Below, piece by piece: positions 12,240 through 21,250 of a stretch of DNA of 64,000 bases. The position numbers and the translations under genes are program-made. Each line of letters starts with the position of its first letter. Position 1 is the stretch's first letter. The stretch is from Candidatus Multivoradales bacterium (GTDB taxonomy: Bacteria; Acidobacteriota; Thermoanaerobaculia; Multivoradales; JAHEKO01): the NCBI GenBank assembly GCA_965248055.1, contig CBDFIJ010000004.1, positions 1,184,001-1,248,000 on the forward strand, in the 5' to 3' direction. Below the pieces are notes generated by a model. That model ran no database searches and was not told the origin of the DNA. It was given only the letters and a program-made list of their open reading frames with translations.

Positions 12240-12676
12240 GGTCGAGCGATTCTCCCACGGCCCGTGACTGTTTCCCCGCCATTCTGACCCGGCACGCTGC
12301 ACGAAACTTCATTCACGCTGGCAAGAGCTCTGGCGGGAATTTCGTTTCGCTTCTAGCGAGTCTGAAGTCGATGCTCGGCGACTTCAATACATTGCTTGTT
12401 TTTGCCGAGCGACTCGATCTTGAGAGCAGGCGAGGAGTCTCAGGAGGCGTTGAGTTGACTCTCCACCGGAGGGTCGCAGGATAGGTCCCGGCTCCCTTGC
12501 CCGGCTCCCGCCGGCTCGAGACGGGCACGCGCACCGCGGCGCCAATCCCCAGCTATCAGGCCACTTCATTTGTCGAGGACTCCCTTTGCCAACCACGACC
12601 TTGATAGGGTGGGGAAGGAGTCGGAGTGGCAGCACTACCGGCCAATCACCAGCCAAAAGAAAAAGGAAACTGCACC

Positions 12677-13588
12677 GTGTCGAGTACCAACGATTCTCGC
12701 GGATCTCTCTTACTCTGGGGAGTCATTCCCCTTGCTTTGCTCGGGCTGCTCCTAGCCTGGATTGTCACAACCAACCCGCTCGCCAATTTAGCTGGAACTG
12801 AAACGGGCGCAGGTGCCCGTCTGACACCGGCTTTTCTCTGGGGGTTTGGACTCATCGGTCTCTACGTCGGCGTCTTGCCGGTGATGCTGGGTTTGGTGTG
12901 GCGACCCTTCCTAATGCGCCTGGGACGCGCCGGACGCGACTTCGTGCTCGCACTGACGATTGGACTTCTGATCTACCTGGGCATAGACACCGTCGAGGAT
13001 GGGATCGAGACCATGGAAGAAGCGTTGTCCATGGTGACGACTCTGGGATTGTTCTTTGGCCTCGCGATTGCCGCCTATTTTGCCGTCGAAGCGTTCTCGC
13101 GCTGGGTGGCGCGACGCAGCGGCGGCGGAGCCGATTGGACCACAGCAATGCTGATCGCCCTGGGGATTGGACTGCACAACTTCGGCGAAGGTCTGGCGAT
13201 TGGCGCCGCCTACGCACTCGGCGAAATGGCCTTGGGAGCGATCCTGGTGGTGGGCTTTACCCTGCACAACACCACCGAAGGGCTGGCGATTGTCGCACCA
13301 CTTTCCAAAGAAACCGAAGTCGGAATCGGCAAACTGTTGCTCCTGGGATTGATCGCCGGAGGACCCACCATCCTCGGAGCCTGGCTCGGCGGCATGGTGG
13401 TCTCGCCAGTAACCGGCGGCATCGCCTTGGCACTGGGCGCCGGCGCCATCGCCCAAGTGGTGATCCAACTCCTTGGCTCGGTGTCGAAAGATCGTTCGTT
13501 GAAGAGCTTTCTGTCTTCGCCTGCAGTGATCGTCGGATTGGTCGTCGGCGCCGCGCTGATGTTCGTCACCGGAAAAATCGCCGGTTAA
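12677..13588 (+). CDS. ZIP (ZupT/GufA) family divalent metal transporter
   Basis: GIGLHNFGEGLAIG and GFTLHNTTEG motifs; AAGGA upstream of GTG 12677. Confidence 0.92.
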   Translation: MSSTNDSRGSLLLWGVIPLALLGLLLAWIVTTNPLANLAGTETGAGARLTPAFLWGFGLIGLYVGVLPVMLGLVWRPFLMRLGRAGRDFVLALTIGLLIYLGIDTVEDGIETMEEALSMVTTLGLFFGLAIAAYFAVEAFSRWVARRSGGGADWTTAMLIALGIGLHNFGEGLAIGAAYALGEMALGAILVVGFTLHNTTEGLAIVAPLSKETEVGIGKLLLLGLIAGGPTILGAWLGGMVVSPVTGGIALALGAGAIAQVVIQLLGSVSKDRSLKSFLSSPAVIVGLVVGAALMFVTGKIAG

Positions 13589-13995: not shown

Positions 13996-14706
13996 TTAGG
14001 CCTCGAATACCTCTCCAGGCTGCAAGGTCACGACCTCACAGTTCATTTCTCGCGCCACAACTTGCCGGGTGAATTCTTCAGGAGTCCCGGTAAGCAGTGG
14101 GAAGGTGCCCCAGTGAATCGGTACGACCTGACCAACCCCGAGCAAACGGCAAGCCTTGGCCGCCTGAACCGGATCCATGGTGAAGACGTCGCCGATCGGC
14201 AGGAATGCCAATTGGGGTCGATACAGCTCACGAATCAACTGCATGTCTGAAAATAGTGCCGTGTCCCCGGCGTGGTAGAAGTCAATGCCGTCTGGGTTAC
14301 GGATTGCGTAGCCCATCGCTGGGCCACCGTGAATAAAATGGCCACCGTCCAAAACACCAGAAGAATGAACCGCCTGGGTCATCGAGACCTTGAGGCCCAG
14401 CACCTCCAGTGTGCCCCCCAAGTTGCCGTGCATGCAATTCTCCACTCCCTGCTTCTCCAACCAATGGCTGAGTTCCAACGAAGCGACAACCACCGACGGT
14501 CGGTATTTCTTGGCGATCGCCACCGCATCATCGATGTGGTCGAAATGTCCATGAGTGATCAGCATCGCGTCGACCTTTTCGATTGCGCGCAACTTCTCGG
14601 GACAAGCGGGGTTGTTGTCCACCCAGGGATCGATCAACAGCGAGCGTCCGTCCGCTAATTCAACGCCGATCGTCGCGTGGCCGTAATAGGTAAATTTGGT
14701 TGTCAA
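13996..14706 (-). CDS. Metallo-beta-lactamase fold metal-dependent hydrolase (UPF0173-like)
   Basis: THGHFDH, AVHSS, YHAGDT, LPIGD, PIHWGTF motifs. Confidence 0.93.
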   Translation of the reverse strand: MTTKFTYYGHATIGVELADGRSLLIDPWVDNNPACPEKLRAIEKVDAMLITHGHFDHIDDAVAIAKKYRPSVVVASLELSHWLEKQGVENCMHGNLGGTLEVLGLKVSMTQAVHSSGVLDGGHFIHGGPAMGYAIRNPDGIDFYHAGDTALFSDMQLIRELYRPQLAFLPIGDVFTMDPVQAAKACRLLGVGQVVPIHWGTFPLLTGTPEEFTRQVVAREMNCEVVTLQPGEVFEA

Positions 14707-14876: not shown

Positions 14877-15374
14877 ATGCGACGGGCCCTCTCCCATCGA
14901 CCCCGTAGCCGGAAGCTAAATCCCATCGTTTGGGGTCTTGTTCGTCTTTCGGCTTTGGTGTTAGTGGGATTCCACGTCCTGCTTCTTGGACGTCGTATCG
15001 CCGATCTGACCATCGCCGACCCTTGGGTTATTGTTCGCTGGTTGGCCACCGTTGCGCTGTTGTTCGTTGGTTGGCGCTATGTACGAAAAGGCGGCTCTCT
15101 GGTCGCCGGCCGCGGCGCACTGGCGTTTTGGATCGCGGTATTCCTGCTGCACGCGTTTGCCCTTCAGCCAGCGCCGGTACCTTTGGCAGAAAGCACGGTC
15201 AACGTTTGGAGTGTAGGGCTACTGCTGGTGCTTTCCTGGGTGGTTCTCAACGCCCTGCAGACTTCAGTCGAAGCACGTAGATACCATCAAACGGAAGACT
15301 TCTTCCTGCTGTTTCATACCGATCAGCTAATCCATTACTCGGGTCGTCCGCCTCCGATCTCCTTCTCCGCATAG
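14877..15374 (+). CDS. Membrane leader protein with C-terminal RPPP putative ribosome-arrest motif
   Basis: About four hydrophobic segments, ends HYSGRPPPISFSA; TGtTACTCT -10 box six nt before the ATG; upstream of a TonB-dependent receptor ORF. Confidence 0.75.
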   Translation: MRRALSHRPRSRKLNPIVWGLVRLSALVLVGFHVLLLGRRIADLTIADPWVIVRWLATVALLFVGWRYVRKGGSLVAGRGALAFWIAVFLLHAFALQPAPVPLAESTVNVWSVGLLLVLSWVVLNALQTSVEARRYHQTEDFFLLFHTDQLIHYSGRPPPISFSA

Positions 15375-15453
15375 ACGCGGAACCCCCACCCCAATCAGAC
15401 GAAGGTGTCACCCTCGCGGTGACTGACCGAACGATACTCTTTGGAAGGAGATC
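15356..15453 (+). promoter_or_regulatory. Anti-SD / SD pairing (putative translational attenuator)
   Basis: GATCTCCTTC (15356-15365) is the exact reverse complement of GAAGGAGATC (15444-15453), which contains the SD of ATG 15457; inner hairpin GTCACC/GGTGAC at 15407-15423. Confidence 0.7.
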
Positions 15454-15456
15454 AAC

Positions 15457-18400
15457 ATGCAGGGCACAACGCCTGCTCTCGACAACGTTTCCCAGTCCTC
15501 AATGCAGTCCCCACTGTTGGAAGCAGTGATGCATCTACCGATTCTCACTACGGTTGTTGCGACCGTATTTTGTCTGGTGTTGTTTCGCCGCTATCGCCAG
15601 CGCGGTGGCCTCCACTTGCTGTGGTGGGCGATCGGCATGGCCACCTACGGCCTTGGTACCCTGACCGAGTCGGCGACCACCCTGTTTGGCTGGAACTCCG
15701 ACGTCTTCAAGCTCTGGTATGTCTTCGGCGCCTTTCTCGGTGGCTATCCACTGGCACAAGGAAGCCTTTACTTGCTGGCTAGGAAACGCCGATTGGCCCA
15801 TCTGTCCGCCATCGTCTGCACCACCGCCATCATCATCGGCGCCATCGCCGTGGCGCTATCCCCTGTCACATTTCCAGGAGTTGACGCACGGCTGTCTGGA
15901 TCCGCTCTGAACTGGCAATGGATTCGCGCTATGACCCCATTTATCAATATCTACTCGGCAATCGTCCTCATTGGAGGTGCTCTGGTGTCCGCTTTTCGTT
16001 TTCGTACCACTCCCGACTTGCGCGGCCGTTACCTCGGCAACATCTTGATCGCTATCGGCGCTTTACTGCCCGGGATCGGCGGCACCATGACTCGCATGGG
16101 TCATGTAGAAGTGCTCTACGTAACCGAGCTGTTGGGTCTGTTGTTTATCTTTGCCGGCTATCGCAAATGCGTCGCCGCACCTCAGCCCGCGACCGAACCC
16201 AAGTCGGCGATAGCGTCAGTTACCGCTGTGCTACTTCTACTGATGAGTCTCGCGAGTCCGCAACTGCTGAGTGCGCAAACTAACGATACGGCTCCTCAAG
16301 GAGAAGGAACTCAGGAAACCGTCGACCAGGACCCTAGGTCGGATAGCGGCGACAACGTCTATTACGGAACCGTGACGGTGACCGCGACCGGCAACGAGTC
16401 CGATACCCATCAGGTCGCTCAACCGGTCACCGTGCTCAAAGATATCGACCTGCGGCTGGCCAACAACGCCGCCGACCTGCTGCGCTGGGAACCCGGAGTC
16501 GATGTTGACGGAGTGGGGGCAGTGCAGGTGCGTCCGGTCATTCGTGGCTTGCGCGGCCTGCGCGTGCTGTTCTTGGAGGACGGCCTGCGGATGAACAACT
16601 CGCGTCGCCAAACTGATTTCGGCGAGATCAGTGGTTTGGTGCCCAATGAGTTGGTCGACCGAATCGAAGTGGTGCGCGGCGCGGCTTCAGTGCTGTACGG
16701 TACCGACGCCATTGGTGGCGTAGTCAACATGATCACCCACCGGCCCAGTGTTGGCTCCGGCTGGGCCGGCAATCTAAGGGTTACCGGTGGCAGCGTCGAC
16801 GACTCGACCAAGGTCACTGCGAGCTTAGCGAAACGAAGCGAGCAGTCATCTTGGTCTAGCACCTTTGGCGTGCGTGATGTTTCGGACTACGAGGCGCCCG
16901 CCGGAACCTTTGGCGATATCAAACTGTTGGAAGACACCTCGGTGCTCGACACCGGGGTCGAGGACAACTTCTTCAAAACCATCTACTCCAGAGACTTGAA
17001 CAGCTCCCACAGCTTGATCCTTTCAGCGCGCGGCTACTCGGGAGAAAACAGCGGATTCGGCTTGGTCGAGCCGTCGCTTTTGGGAGACGACAGCTTTCGC
17101 ATTCGCATCCTCTATCCGGAGCAAGATTTTCAAAAGTTCGTCGCCACCCACCTAGGAACAGATCTCGGTTGGGCCGACACGCTGGAAACCAAGCTCTATA
17201 GCCAAAGCAACGAGCGCATCCTGGTCAACGACATCGGCATCAATATCGGGCCGATCTTTCCCGGCGCTCCCAACTCCTCTGTCGACGCGGACACCGTAAA
17301 CAACACCGATATGGATACCTGGGGCGTCCGCTCTGAAGCCGCCAAAGCAGCGGCCGGAGGGCTCTGGACCTACGGCGTCGAAGCATTCTTCGATGATTCC
17401 TTTAACACCGATTCGTCTGTGACTACGACCACCATTCGTGTCCCCTTTCCGCCTTTCGCGTTTGTCAGCCAAAGCACCGACAACATCGCCAATGCCCCCA
17501 ACGCCACTAACTCTTCAATCGGTGCTTTCGCCCAGTACGAGCGATTGATCGGGGACCGCGCCCATGTCAGTCTTGGCACTCGCTATCAGCAGGTCACGAC
17601 CCAAGCAGAACCGACACCAGATCTGGATGTCACCGGACTGGACTTCGACGATTCCCGTTGGGTCGGCGCTGCGACCCTGCGCTATCAGCTCCAGGACAAC
17701 CTGCAATTGGTCGGTTCGCTGGGAAGTTCCTTCCGCATGCCGAGCATCATCGAGCGCCTGTTCAACGGCCCGACCCCCGAAGGAGCTGGCTTTCAACTTC
17801 TAAACCCAAACCTCAAGTCGGAAACCGGTATCAACTACGACATCGGTCTCAAGTATCGGGGTCGGCGCACCTTTGCCGAGGTCACCTATTTCGAGAATCG
17901 CCTGTCCGACGGTATCTCCCAGCACTTCCTCAGCCCAGCCGACGTTGACGCCTTAGCGCAAGACTTGAAAACCGAAATTGCGCTACTGGGACCCAACGTA
18001 TTTGTGGTTCAGCAACGCAATATTGAAGAACTGACCTACACTGGGTTCGAGCTGGCGGGTGGAATCAACCTGGAAAGTGGAGTGACAGTGGGTGGCAACT
18101 TCTCGCTGCTCGACGCCGATCGCACCGACTCCGCCAACCCACCGACCGGCGAAAGCTACGGCAACAAGACCAACCTGTTCCTCCGCTACGCCCCAGCCAG
18201 CAAGCCGTACTATCTAGAATGGCGTATCCGTCACTCGCCGGAAGATGACTTCCCGCTGGCACCCAACCAAGCCCTGCCCCCAGCAGGCCTCAGACTGCCG
18301 TCTTTGACTGTGCAACAACTGGCCGCCGGTTGGACCTTCAGCGGTGAAGGTCGTCTCGGTCATCAACTCAACCTAGTGGTCGACAACCTGAGCGACGATC

Positions 18401-18483
18401 TCTATTCCGAGTCCTCCAACGCCTCCTTCTTCCGACCACAGCCAGGGAGAGGGGCGCGGGTGAGTTATGGGCTGAGGTTCTAA
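15457..18483 (+). CDS. Fusion: 7-TM membrane domain + internal signal peptide + TonB-dependent receptor
   Basis: Residues ~25-235 have seven hydrophobic helices; 249-273 signal-like, ending LSA|Q; then TVTVTAT TonB-box-like, plug (IRGLRG...RIEVVRGAASVLYGTDAIGGVVNMIT), FRMP/NPNL motifs, C-terminal YGLRF. Confidence 0.88.
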   Translation: MQGTTPALDNVSQSSMQSPLLEAVMHLPILTTVVATVFCLVLFRRYRQRGGLHLLWWAIGMATYGLGTLTESATTLFGWNSDVFKLWYVFGAFLGGYPLAQGSLYLLARKRRLAHLSAIVCTTAIIIGAIAVALSPVTFPGVDARLSGSALNWQWIRAMTPFINIYSAIVLIGGALVSAFRFRTTPDLRGRYLGNILIAIGALLPGIGGTMTRMGHVEVLYVTELLGLLFIFAGYRKCVAAPQPATEPKSAIASVTAVLLLLMSLASPQLLSAQTNDTAPQGEGTQETVDQDPRSDSGDNVYYGTVTVTATGNESDTHQVAQPVTVLKDIDLRLANNAADLLRWEPGVDVDGVGAVQVRPVIRGLRGLRVLFLEDGLRMNNSRRQTDFGEISGLVPNELVDRIEVVRGAASVLYGTDAIGGVVNMITHRPSVGSGWAGNLRVTGGSVDDSTKVTASLAKRSEQSSWSSTFGVRDVSDYEAPAGTFGDIKLLEDTSVLDTGVEDNFFKTIYSRDLNSSHSLILSARGYSGENSGFGLVEPSLLGDDSFRIRILYPEQDFQKFVATHLGTDLGWADTLETKLYSQSNERILVNDIGINIGPIFPGAPNSSVDADTVNNTDMDTWGVRSEAAKAAAGGLWTYGVEAFFDDSFNTDSSVTTTTIRVPFPPFAFVSQSTDNIANAPNATNSSIGAFAQYERLIGDRAHVSLGTRYQQVTTQAEPTPDLDVTGLDFDDSRWVGAATLRYQLQDNLQLVGSLGSSFRMPSIIERLFNGPTPEGAGFQLLNPNLKSETGINYDIGLKYRGRRTFAEVTYFENRLSDGISQHFLSPADVDALAQDLKTEIALLGPNVFVVQQRNIEELTYTGFELAGGINLESGVTVGGNFSLLDADRTDSANPPTGESYGNKTNLFLRYAPASKPYYLEWRIRHSPEDDFPLAPNQALPPAGLRLPSLTVQQLAAGWTFSGEGRLGHQLNLVVDNLSDDLYSESSNASFFRPQPGRGARVSYGLRF

Positions 18484-18563: not shown

Positions 18564-19178
18564 TCATTGAACTTTCTGCGCCGAGTCTAGAACCTGGGTT
18601 TGGTCGAGATAGCAATCTGGGTCGTCAGGGGTTTTTTCGCAAAATTCAGCCACCGCCTGGGACAAGTCAGATGACGCAATACGCTCTTTGTCTTTGAAGA
18701 CAGACAGCTTTGCAACCTCGCGGTTGAACGGGAGAATGATTGTCGTCTCGGCACTCTCCTCTATATCAACGAAGTCGCGATCTTCTTCGTCACTCCAAAC
18801 CAATGTCCAACGAGGGTCCCAAAGTGGAATCGAAACGAGGCTAACTCCCTGAACGTCTACTAGTTGTGCCGTGAGCATGGCGGGGTTCCCAATGTGATTG
18901 GGCGCCTCCCCGTAAAGAACCCTCGGGTTCGTGAGCGTTACAAGACCCTCGGCGGCTACGCGCATGTCAACGACCACCACTTTGGCAAAAGCCGTGGACG
19001 CAACCGCACTGGGGTCTTTGGGGCCAACACTCAAAGTGCCGCCATCAATCTGCTGCACAATTGCCGACTCCTGCGGCTGCTGCGCCACGATCCTGCTCTG
19101 ATCACCCTCCTCAGTATCAGAGCAGCCCAAAAGCACCAGCATGGGAATCCAAAGCCCGAATCGATTACACGCTTTCAT
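18564..19178 (-). CDS. Hypothetical lipoprotein
   Basis: MKACNRFGLWIPMLVLLG-C lipobox; GGAGAGG upstream of ATG 19178. Confidence 0.7.
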   Translation of the reverse strand: MKACNRFGLWIPMLVLLGCSDTEEGDQSRIVAQQPQESAIVQQIDGGTLSVGPKDPSAVASTAFAKVVVVDMRVAAEGLVTLTNPRVLYGEAPNHIGNPAMLTAQLVDVQGVSLVSIPLWDPRWTLVWSDEEDRDFVDIEESAETTIILPFNREVAKLSVFKDKERIASSDLSQAVAEFCEKTPDDPDCYLDQTQVLDSAQKVQ

Positions 19179-19225
19179 TGTTCTAACACCTCTCCAGTTT
19201 GCTGAACATCTGCTATACCTACTCG

Positions 19226-21250
19226 TCACGGTAGGGCGTCTATGACCGCCTGAATCCTGCGCTCGTCGGCAGCGCGCGGCACACGATTGTCAACCATGCG
19301 GTCGTTTTCGACATCTGCTGCCCCCGGCGCTGGCGCGTGATCAAGGCGAAAGAACTGACTCCCGCTACTGACACGCGTTGACGTAAACCCCAAGCACGAA
19401 CTGCGAAGACCACCGAGCGCGTCAGCCTGGCAAGCAGTCTGTGCTGCTGAACTACCAGCAGCTTGGGGACCATACAGATTCGGGTTGGTGCCGGTCTGAA
19501 AGTAGCCGCCATCGCAACAATATTCGTCCGCCAATCCGAACGGGCTGTGCCCGGTCTCATGCCGCACGGTATTTGTCGCCCCTGGTTCAGTACTGAAAAT
19601 ACCTCCACTGGCACAGTCACGCAAATTATCTGTGTGCAGCAACACTCCACTGTCCGAAAACGTGTAGTCGGTACTCCAGTTCGAAGGCGCAGTATGGCAG
19701 GGCGACCCGGCGGTAAAGCCATGCGCATCGCCTCGGTCCTGCGCGATCCAGAAGTTGAACCGCCCCTGATTACGCAGAAACAACTCATCTGACAAGAATG
19801 CCGTCTGGACCACGTCATGCACGTCGTCCGTGAAAGCCGTCACATTGGCGCTGCTGTAGTTGTCACTGTCAGGGATGAAAACTAAGTCCATTGCTTCGGC
19901 GGTTGCGCGGTGCCGCAACACCGGCACTGCCCGGCCGCGTGCAGGCGGTCCAATGATCGAACTACGGCTACCGGTGGTGGCGGATACACCTCGTTCTTCT
20001 GCATTGCACTGGTAACTAAAAGTCCCGTTGCTCGAAGCGTGAAGACGGATTTCGCAAGTCGTCGCATCGGTGCAGCTCTGAACATTGCCAGTACCACCCG
20101 CCGGCTGACGTAGCTCAATACGGTCGGCAACGACCGGGCGCATATTCGCATCGAGGGCATCAGCGGTGAATGTCACCGTGTCACCAGCTTGCGGCCAAAT
20201 CGGCGAATGCAGGCAACGCACGTAGAGGCGCGGACGATTATGGATCCGAATGCGCACCTGCATACGAGCCCTATCACTTTGATTGCCACTCACATCAATG
20301 CGTGAGCCTACATCGAGGATGTCGCCACACCTCCCAGTTGCCTCTCCAGTGATGTTGCAGGTGCTCGGATTCAGATCAAGTTGCAGTACCCGCCCAGCTC
20401 CTGGTTGCACGTCGACTGTGTCGTCGGGATTAAGAAAGCCGTCAGAATCCATGATTCGAATGTCGATCGGAATTGTTCTGCGACTCAGGTTCACCCAACG
20501 AGTAAAACGCCAGTAAGCAGCGACATCATCTTGGTTGCCAAACTGTGTGCTTTCGCCGCGCGACTCGTTGGATTGCTCGGTACCGTCGATACCGATTCGT
20601 CCATAAAAGTCAGCTGACGATCCACACCACCAAAAGGTGTCATCGACGCACTCGAGCGTGGTCAGCCGTTCGACCACGACCTCGACTTCACCGAGTCGTG
20701 CTGGGGTGACGTCAATTCGAAACCGTATTCTCGCTCGGTCGTCGCTCGTACCGCTCGACGTCAAAGTCGCTCCACACGCACCAGAGGCCCCGCCGCTTAT
20801 CGTGCAGCCGCCCAAATTCACACTCAGGTCCAGGTTCCTTCCACTACCGGAAGTGATGTCAACGTGGTCATCCCCGAACCGCAGCCCTCCGTCGGAATCC
20901 CATATTTCAATGCGGACGTTGATGTTGCTGGAAGACACCGCGCGTCGGAATGTCCAGTTCGGTGAAATATCCGCGCTATCGTCAATCGAACCACTCGAAA
21001 AAGACACACCGTCGATAACAACCTTCGAGTAGAAGTCCCCGGCCGAACCACACCACCACAGAGTTTCGTCAACACACTCGAGCTCTTCGACACGTTGAAT
21101 GGTCACTGTGACTTCGTCGTCGGCTGCCGCCATGGACGGAAAAGCTAACCCCCACAGGACAAGTGCCGTCCAAGCACGGTACCAAAGAACTCTTCTCAAG
21201 GCGCAAGACGGAAGTGGTTCTTTGCTCACTGCTTCATCCCTCAAAATCAA
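19226..21250 (-). CDS. Secreted M64-like zinc metallopeptidase with two N-terminal repeated beta (C2-like) domains
   Basis: Signal peptide ending AAA|D; duplicated LECVD(E/D)T(L/F)WWCGSxxDFY..IDG domain; MDLVFIPD and HETGHSPFGLADEY; exact start uncertain. Confidence 0.75.
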   Translation of the reverse strand: MILRDEAVSKEPLPSCALRRVLWYRAWTALVLWGLAFPSMAAADDEVTVTIQRVEELECVDETLWWCGSAGDFYSKVVIDGVSFSSGSIDDSADISPNWTFRRAVSSSNINVRIEIWDSDGGLRFGDDHVDITSGSGRNLDLSVNLGGCTISGGASGACGATLTSSGTSDDRARIRFRIDVTPARLGEVEVVVERLTTLECVDDTFWWCGSSADFYGRIGIDGTEQSNESRGESTQFGNQDDVAAYWRFTRWVNLSRRTIPIDIRIMDSDGFLNPDDTVDVQPGAGRVLQLDLNPSTCNITGEATGRCGDILDVGSRIDVSGNQSDRARMQVRIRIHNRPRLYVRCLHSPIWPQAGDTVTFTADALDANMRPVVADRIELRQPAGGTGNVQSCTDATTCEIRLHASSNGTFSYQCNAEERGVSATTGSRSSIIGPPARGRAVPVLRHRATAEAMDLVFIPDSDNYSSANVTAFTDDVHDVVQTAFLSDELFLRNQGRFNFWIAQDRGDAHGFTAGSPCHTAPSNWSTDYTFSDSGVLLHTDNLRDCASGGIFSTEPGATNTVRHETGHSPFGLADEYCCDGGYFQTGTNPNLYGPQAAGSSAAQTACQADALGGLRSSCLGFTSTRVSSGSQFFRLDHAPAPGAADVENDRMVDNRVPRAADERRIQAVIDALP

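Follow-up and report, generated by a model that had tools for sequence, protein, structure and literature searches.

Bacterial polyproteins that are cut at internal signal peptides are very rare, and apart from the cytochrome b/c1 precursor of Bradyrhizobium none is known to us. FbcH of Bradyrhizobium japonicum, which Thony-Meyer and colleagues are said to have described in about 1989-1991, is reportedly a cytochrome b / cytochrome c1 precursor that is cut into two proteins. Here we describe a gene with a similar layout. It lies in a 64,000-nucleotide stretch of the genome of a Candidatus Multivoradales bacterium (Acidobacteriota; contig CBDFIJ010000004.1, positions 1,184,001 to 1,248,000), which we call the window and whose first letter is position 1. 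A single open reading frame (ORF) of the window, at 15457-18483 on the forward strand, contains a seven-transmembrane (7-TM) inner-membrane domain, an internal export-like segment and a complete TonB-dependent receptor (Table 1).

Like FbcH, as it is reported, this ORF joins a polytopic inner-membrane protein, a putative internal signal peptide and an exported partner of the same unit. There are also differences. Both products of FbcH are reported to stay in one inner-membrane complex, whereas the second product here would be an outer-membrane beta-barrel that has to cross the periplasm, and the first half comes from an uncharacterised family. The polyproteins of flaviviruses and hepatitis C virus are likewise multi-pass membrane precursors, which host signal peptidase reportedly cleaves at their lumenal face, behind internal helices that resemble signal sequences. 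However, these belong to viral genomes and the eukaryotic endoplasmic reticulum, whereas the window ORF is a cellular bacterial gene whose products would serve two membranes.

Split pairs of homologous genes, directly adjacent or overlapping, occur in relatives of the window genome, and there the N-terminal signal peptide of the receptor stands where the fused proteins have their linker. Such genes are set apart by a stop codon, a Shine-Dalgarno site and an ATG, all of which are gone in the window. A receptor gene beside a single inner-membrane gene, without an ATP-binding cassette (ABC) transporter, is also known from PnuT-type 7-TM vitamin transporters and from siderophore permeases of the major facilitator superfamily (MFS). 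Pnu proteins also share a topology with the N terminus outside and the C terminus in the cytoplasm (N-out/C-in). Yet no match of the 7-TM domain of the window to Pnu, SWEET or MFS proteins appeared in sequence searches or among the top 50 fold matches listed.

Full-text searches of the literature brought up no TonB-dependent receptor that is joined to the end of a polytopic domain or exported by means of an internal signal peptide. This agrees with an earlier sequence-only reading of the window, which knew of no described system with this architecture. The parts are of known kinds: a polyprotein with an internal signal peptide, a receptor with an inner-membrane partner and a leader that ends in an RxPP motif. 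We found no report of a single ORF that would supply both the inner and the outer membrane, and the fusion also exposes an uncharacterised 7-TM family.

The frame is uninterrupted from the ATG at 15457 to the stop codon at 18481-18483 and encodes 1008 amino acids (aa). Hence the two halves are not separated by a stop, as the sequence-only reading had stated. Neither a stop nor a frameshift is hidden at the junction. In each of four runs, Logan contigs span 15400-16700 without a differing letter or a gap, at a depth of 21-65; all four runs represent one sample, which is possibly the source of the window itself. The recurrence of the architecture in homologues is a stronger sign against an artefact than this agreement. 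The fusion is not an assembly error.

A genome of the same genus (G001) carries the same fusion in a frame of about 1000 aa, with 81% identity. Homologues of residues 1-250 with a size of 554-1764 aa number 74, and 72 of them contain a Plug domain. Within the taxonomic family of the window, eight genomes have frames of about 1000 aa and eight have split frames of 241-294 aa. The fused architecture is widespread in Thermoanaerobaculia-like Acidobacteriota and is not unique to the window genome. A comparison of fused and split relatives, which had been proposed as a check, finds both states, and the fusion is conserved. Source names are available for 13 of the 74 fused homologues; they are receptor-type or generic and never mention the extra domain. 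Present annotation conceals the combination of 7-TM domain and receptor. A structure model of the full-length protein, built from an alignment of 66 fused homologues, consists of two well-folded modules with a low-confidence stretch between them.

The receptor half has all parts of a TonB-dependent receptor that the earlier claim of a complete plug and barrel implied. Ahead of the plug it has VTVTATG, which fits the consensus of the TonB box. Among the 66 fused homologues, T309 and A310 of this motif are invariant, and T307, V308, T311 and G312 are nearly invariant. The Plug region matches chains of Cir, PhuR, ShuA and BtuB. The match to the barrel family PF00593 extends over residues 540-978 (121.3 bits, cut-off 27), and the model shows long strands from about residue 435 to 1007, mostly with a predicted local distance difference test (pLDDT) score above 90. 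The protein ends in ...SYGLRF with a terminal Phe, and the consensus of the 66 homologues also ends in RF. What is missing is a signal peptide at the N terminus of the translated protein. The segment that resembles one stands at residues 249-273, after seven transmembrane helices. This is the anomaly of this receptor.

An AlphaFold2 model of residues 1-250, based on 121 homologues, is a confident seven-helix bundle (pLDDT 91.1, predicted template-modelling score 0.86). Its transmembrane (TM) helices lie at residues 27-49, 52-77, 81-107 (kinked), 111-134, 154-181, 186-213 and 217-240. Seven helices had been proposed at about residues 25-235, and the model places them at 27-240. Positive charges in the loops support an N-out/C-in topology with a cytoplasmic C-terminal tail for the whole family. 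Over 121 family sequences, the mean number of Lys and Arg residues is 3.6 in loop 1, 2.4 in loop 3, 4.8 in loop 5 and 2.6 in the C-terminal tail. On the opposite side it is 0.39 in the N-terminal tail, 0.05 in loop 2 and 1.0 in loop 6. The N-out/C-in orientation claimed before our analysis is retained as a prediction by these counts.

The same domain normally occurs alone. A total of 3882 shorter proteins match it, usually about 240 aa in size. The best 120 of these 3882 matches are 228-257 aa long, about 60% identical and without a Pfam domain. A profile search extends the family to 1535 clusters at 50% identity (E<=1e-3). Residues that are invariant in the stand-alone family, among them H53, E71, Q101, N164, N195, R213, E218 and E224, are kept in the fused proteins. 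Judged by these matches, the N-terminal half is a member of a large, unnamed and widespread 7-TM family.

Between the two halves lies the linker. An internal signal peptide had been placed at 16201-16275, and a coordinate check finds the segment there. The window contains two candidate cleavage sites, SLA/S after A266 and LSA/Q after A273 (the slash marks the cut). In the full-length model, pLDDT is below 50 at residues 245-254 and 256-299. Only a low-confidence helix of 14 residues (251-264) is formed, and the linker is not packed against the 7-TM bundle.

The linkers of the homologues share this character. A hydrophobic 12-mer with a mean Kyte-Doolittle value of at least 1.9 is present in 74/74 fused linkers, and a Lys or Arg stands just ahead of it in 72. 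The uncharged run starts a median of 21 residues after TM7 and is 8-22 residues long (median 14), a length that fits a signal peptide and not a transmembrane helix. In the 57 of 74 proteins with a recognised TonB-box-like motif, a disordered stretch of 24-96 residues (median 39) leads from the run to this motif. The residues after the hydrophobic core resemble signal-peptidase sites in the fused homologues (VSA/Q, LSA/Q, ASA/Q, VWA/Q and similar). In the alignment column of A273, position -1, at least 90% of the 66 fused homologues have Ala. The internal signal peptide that the sequence-only reading had proposed is therefore supported by comparison, since all 74 fused homologues show signal-peptide character. 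In the window itself, a crude pattern test recognises a segment with n-, h- and c-regions and small residues at -3 and -1, and the predicted topology ends the upstream membrane part of the same ORF on the cytoplasmic side.

One fused protein carries a different partner. In P0069 (L069:5071-6840), where the 7-TM domain is fused to a HmuY protein, the linker carries a canonical lipobox, LSAC, at the position of the signal segment. The separate HmuY-like gene of locus L051 has a hydrophobic leader that ends in Cys (AAAC), a looser lipobox match. Each exported partner keeps an export signal of its own type, and it is difficult to see why these signals would be kept if they had no use.

To see the arrangement in relatives, 98 further loci were classified, of which 8 are duplicates; the unique rows, window included, number 90. 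In 17 of them the 7-TM domain is fused to a receptor, always with the membrane domain first, and in one it is fused to a HmuY-family protein. A 7-TM gene is followed by a separate receptor gene in seven (L003, L006, L007, L013, L014, L018 and L094). The receptor gene directly precedes the 7-TM gene in 39, and 26 have no adjacent receptor or reach the end of a contig. Counting the fused form and both gene orders, the 7-TM gene directly adjoins a homologous receptor gene in 56 of the 89 unique loci besides the window. HmuY genes adjoin the 7-TM gene in the Gemmatimonadota loci L041, L049 and L051; in L051, the HmuY-like gene, read in a different frame, shares sequence with the 3' end of the 7-TM gene.

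In the six split loci examined, the receptor gene starts with a Shine-Dalgarno site and an ATG of its own and encodes its own signal peptide. A single in-frame stop separates the two genes in three of these loci (L003, L007 and L018), and the receptor frame opens immediately after it. In two (L006 and L013), the 7-TM and receptor genes overlap.

A tree of the 7-TM domain has two supported halves, one with the membrane domain first and one with the receptor first. Within the membrane-domain-first half, fused and split states are intermingled. By parsimony the fused state changes 10 times, and at least 3 of these changes are forced by well-supported branches. Thus the fusion seems to have arisen or reverted several times, and fused and split forms appear to be interchangeable. 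If fusion and fission are this easy and tolerated, then the fused protein should yield the same two working proteins.

These patterns are best explained if the ORF arose naturally by the fusion of two neighbouring genes that belonged to one uptake module, and if selection maintains the fusion. The first gene would encode the 7-TM protein, and the second would encode its partner, a heme-type TonB-dependent receptor. The sequence-only reading had argued that the missing ATG and ribosome-binding site speak against two merged genes. This holds against a merger by annotation or assembly. It does not hold in the evolutionary sense, where two neighbouring genes have clearly merged: split relatives exist, three of them with one in-frame stop, and 8 of the 17 fused loci keep the ATG of the receptor together with a Shine-Dalgarno-like motif.

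How are two proteins obtained from one frame? We infer that signal peptidase I cleaves a precursor, which is the best reading and to which we assign a probability of about 0.65. The precursor would insert into the inner membrane with its 7-TM domain N-out/C-in. The hydrophobic segment at residues 251-266 would then enter the membrane as a signal peptide (N-in/C-out) and start Sec translocation of the receptor half. Signal peptidase I, for which the genome has one gene, would cut after A273 or A266. The receptor would be released into the periplasm and assembled into the outer membrane, whereas the inner-membrane product would retain the signal segment as an eighth helix. The genome also contains 11 TonB_C matches. 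Because the gene in the window has no internal start, the two proteins would be made at a ratio of 1:1.

The main rival explanation is that two proteins arise without proteolysis. The receptor would then be translated separately, whether from an internal start (at GTG 258, at ATG 263 or at some non-canonical codon) or because transcription begins within the ORF, and the read-through product would be a tolerated by-product of a lost stop. We consider this unlikely for the window. As had been claimed, no start precedes the signal segment: the scan finds no in-frame ATG, GTG or TTG between TM7 and the hydrophobic core, and the same is true ahead of the core in the congener L082 and in L092. Consequently, the receptor is probably made only from the precursor here. 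In-frame GTG (V258) and ATG (M263) codons do lie within the core, and a start at either could leave a short signal peptide without charges. Yet no purine-rich Shine-Dalgarno motif is seen in the 20 nucleotides (nt) before either, and the truncated signal would lack the charged n-region. Among the 74 fused proteins, 31 have a Met before the core, whereas 43 have no Met in the linker and nevertheless keep the signal-like segment. The tight coupling or overlap of the two genes in split forms also fits an internal start. A consensus scan of the ORF for sigma-70-like promoters found none; since the scan covers this promoter type only, the evidence is weak. In a search for sequencing runs with the region, no RNA run was listed.

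Alternatively, the fusion might stay uncleaved, with the hydrophobic segment as an eighth transmembrane signal anchor. The receptor would then be tethered and bridge both membranes via its linker of about 40 residues, or it would not function at all. The length of the disordered stretch would allow it to span part of the periplasm. However, neither the small residues conserved in the -1 column nor the short hydrophobic run suits an anchor, the lipobox of the HmuY fusion makes sense only if the protein is processed, and the repeated interchange of fused and split forms implies that the halves work as separate proteins. Moreover, we know of no precedent for a barrel that is assembled while anchored in the inner membrane. 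Hence we regard an uncleaved fusion as very unlikely. An artefact, meaning a sequencing or assembly error or a recent and functionless loss of a stop codon in a decaying gene, is hardly credible. It would draw on the single stop by which some split relatives differ, and on the nature of the genome, a metagenome-type assembly in 4 contigs. It is opposed by the letter-for-letter identity of the four contig sets (with the caveat of their common sample), by the fusion in G001 and the 72 fused homologues, and by the invariant residues that are kept in both halves.

Several points weigh against the cleavage of a precursor by signal peptidase I. Signal peptides were recognised by a crude count of hydropathy and sequence patterns and not by SignalP. 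The automatic picker of cleavage sites was too permissive: it fired in 74/74 proteins, often inside the core, so that its positions were not used. Leu at position -3, as in LSA/Q, is tolerated but not optimal. In addition to the GTG and ATG within the core of the window, an internal ATG with a Shine-Dalgarno-like motif is found in the linker of 8 of the 17 unique fused loci (L002, L004, L005, L008, L012, L039, L046 and L093). A further 6 of the 17 have GTG only, or an ATG without a clear motif. In the eight loci the receptor may still be translated alone, and the fusion is not necessarily an obligate polyprotein everywhere. The gene order supports an internal signal peptide, but it can also be read otherwise. 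Fusions are absent from all 39 receptor-first loci, even from the 9 whose genes share a frame and lie only 0-42 nt apart, as expected if there no internal signal peptide could rescue the products; the contrast rests on two clades with loci that are not independent and is no statistical proof. The need of the receptor for a free C-terminal Phe can explain the asymmetry as well.

What the two proteins do is a separate question. The best receptor model and the HmuY and FecCD partners link the 7-TM family to the TonB-dependent import of an iron complex, which is probably heme. Most likely, the 7-TM protein acts at the inner membrane on the import substrate of the receptor, which would be heme or a related iron complex. 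A first guess is that it is the permease, and this is the weakest step of the whole proposal.

Part of the evidence speaks against these assignments of function. The best NCBIfam match of the receptor, the heme/hemoglobin receptor subfamily TIGR01785, reaches 203.9 bits and stays below the cut-off of 316.85. FRAP and NPNL boxes with an intervening His are the signature of heme receptors. The window receptor has FRMP...NPNL at 17731-17814 (residues 759-786), with F759, R760, P762 and L786 invariant, and no His between the FRMP and NPNL boxes. Thus the import substrate stays uncertain. In P0199 (563 aa), the 7-TM domain is fused directly to an ABC permease of the FecCD type (250 bits, residues 254-561) without a signal-like linker. 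The existence of this fusion suggests that the 7-TM protein may not be the permease itself but an accessory to it. Finally, Foldseek, a profile search of the PDB and the ESM Atlas reveal no solved or named relative of the 7-TM domain.

These searches in detail gave the following. Residues 1-250 match no Pfam and no NCBIfam family. Foldseek returns no PDB match to the 7-TM model at E<=1e-3. The top 50 of its hits are nearly all G-protein-coupled receptors, but the best E-value is 0.014 and the template-modelling score is at most 0.57, and we rejected this kinship. The profile search of PDB sequences with the 7-TM family gives one chance match only (E 0.093). The ESM Atlas returned unnamed clusters only, and 0.82, the score of the nearest cluster with a name, is no better than chance. 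HisKA_7TM (PF16927) was rejected too: the 7-TM domain of the window has no match to it at E<=0.01, and two distant family members have sub-threshold matches of 20.9 and 18.3 bits (cut-off 28.6). A link to the membrane part of neighbouring histidine kinases is unsupported (hhalign, 35% probability over 45 columns).

We also considered Smlt0796/0797 of the Stenotrophomonas hemin operon as partners. These proteins are described as predicted periplasmic and without homology to known proteins, and no link to the 7-TM family is seen there (PMC9241770).

The fusion may serve as a Rosetta stone, which links the unnamed 7-TM family to TonB-dependent uptake, probably of heme. The FecCD fusion of P0199 is a second link of this kind, to the import of iron complexes, heme or B12. 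In P0073 (564 aa), the 7-TM domain has a divergent N terminus and is joined to yet another kind of partner, about 330 residues without a Pfam domain or a signal-like linker.

No inner-membrane step of such uptake is known from the phyla concerned. Only tentatively do we combine everything into one picture: an obligate precursor, release by signal peptidase I, supply at 1:1, an eighth helix, a 7-TM family that is the missing inner-membrane step of heme-type uptake, and gating by an upstream ORF that ends in RPPP. In this combined picture the 7-TM family would, just as tentatively, serve Acidobacteriota, Gemmatimonadota and other phyla. If the proposal is true, then the Sec and signal-peptidase machinery is able to start the export of an outer-membrane barrel halfway through a polytopic protein, and the gene is a natural system in which to study internal signal peptides.

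Table 1. Features of the fused ORF and of its upstream region (window positions).
Feature	Position	Strand	Remarks
165-aa ORF, candidate arrest-peptide leader	14877..15374	+	several hydrophobic segments; ends in ...SGRPPPISFSA and stop
RPPP codons, RxPP arrest-type motif	15345..15356	+	five residues before the stop
Candidate anti-Shine-Dalgarno sequence GATCTCCTTC	15356..15365	+	10 nt directly behind the PPP codons; complementary to 15443..15453
Shine-Dalgarno region GGAAGGAGATC of the fused ORF	15443..15453	+	4 nt before ATG 15457
7-TM inner-membrane domain, residues 1-236	15457..16164	+	structure models, loop charges, stand-alone homologues; predicted N-out/C-in
Short, predicted cytoplasmic linker after TM7, KCVAAPQPATEPKS	16165..16206	+	stand-alone homologues end here; pLDDT <50 from residue 245
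Internal signal-peptide-like segment KSAIASVTAVLLLLMSLASPQLLSA	16201..16275	+	K249, hydrophobic core 251-266, then candidate cleavage sites
Acidic, polar, disordered linker; would-be mature receptor N terminus QTNDT...	16276..16368	+	pLDDT 33-48 over residues 256-299
TonB box VTVTATG, residues 306-312	16372..16392	+	near-invariant in 66 fused homologues
Plug domain, residues 319-422	16411..16722	+	PF07715, 71.5 bits, cut-off 23.9
TonB-dependent beta-barrel to terminal ...YGLRF and stop	17074..18483	+	PF00593, strands with high pLDDT

The ORF upstream of the fusion resembles described leaders of receptor genes. According to PMC12992588, RxPP (x = G, A, S or P) is arrest-inducing, ORFs that end in RAPP or RGPP are enriched before TonB-dependent receptor genes, and CruR of Bordetella is the tested case. 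There, in CruR-BfrG of Bordetella pertussis, a small exported or membrane ORF before the receptor gene ends in RxPP, and stalling controls translation of the downstream gene (PMC12992588, which cites Roy et al. 2022). In the window, RxPP also stands near the C terminus of a small predicted membrane protein upstream of a receptor gene. The window ORF differs from CruR-type leaders in having several hydrophobic segments instead of a signal peptide. Its copies end mostly in RPPP, not RAPP or RGPP, and belong to no detectable family. The gene downstream is a fusion, unlike in CruR-BfrG.

Neither Pfam nor NCBIfam has a family that matches the ORF itself. Its homologues stand ahead of the module in 27 locus rows (22 unique), and this arrangement belongs to the membrane-domain-first clade. 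They end in R[PA]PP in 26/27 cases and in LPPP in one, 1-7 residues before the stop, mostly with RPPP. The 40 or so residues ahead of the motif are poorly conserved. An arrest leader had been claimed at this place, and the part of the claim that concerns the motif stands: the C terminus is conserved and of the RxPP arrest type.

The expression of the fused ORF is plausibly tuned by this leader. If a ribosome stalled on the upstream ORF, the Shine-Dalgarno site ahead of the fusion would become accessible. In the minimum-free-energy fold, 15356-15365 pairs with 15443-15453, and in the window locus it is the best partner of the Shine-Dalgarno region among 344 sliding windows. A pairing at the same position was not found in the 9 other loci scored, where the best partner lies elsewhere. 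In a cruder shuffle test, 5/22 loci beat 95% of the shuffles. Neither of these two crude tests shows the pairing to be conserved in relatives. A scan of the region for promoters and terminators gave nothing usable.

The receptor-first clade has other neighbours. Upstream of the module, a histidine kinase (HisKA_3) is found in 23 loci and a LuxR-type response regulator in 22. The kinase has a multi-TM N terminus with an invariant HHLDYP stretch, followed by HisKA_3 and HATPase_c. This suggests two-component control in the clade that is without an RxPP leader. Examples from these roughly 22-23 Gemmatimonadota and Vicinamibacteria loci are L029:1225-2991 and L076:895-1593. Beyond the leader ORF, the histidine kinase and the response regulator, the loci compared have no further conserved neighbours; long antisense shadow ORFs, which naive calling produces in GC-rich loci, were disregarded.

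The window has a gene of the metallo-beta-lactamase fold on the minus strand (13996-14706), shortly before the module. Before it, at 12626-13588 (+), a multi-pass membrane ORF of 320 aa has a sub-threshold match to ZIP zinc transporters (19.8 bits, cut-off 35.1). Downstream, the module meets a convergent ORF of 221 aa without a family (18564-19229, minus strand). The next ORF, at 19226-21250 (minus strand, 674 aa), is convergent as well; it has two similar N-terminal repeats (WWCGS...) and a sub-threshold match to Peptidase_M64.

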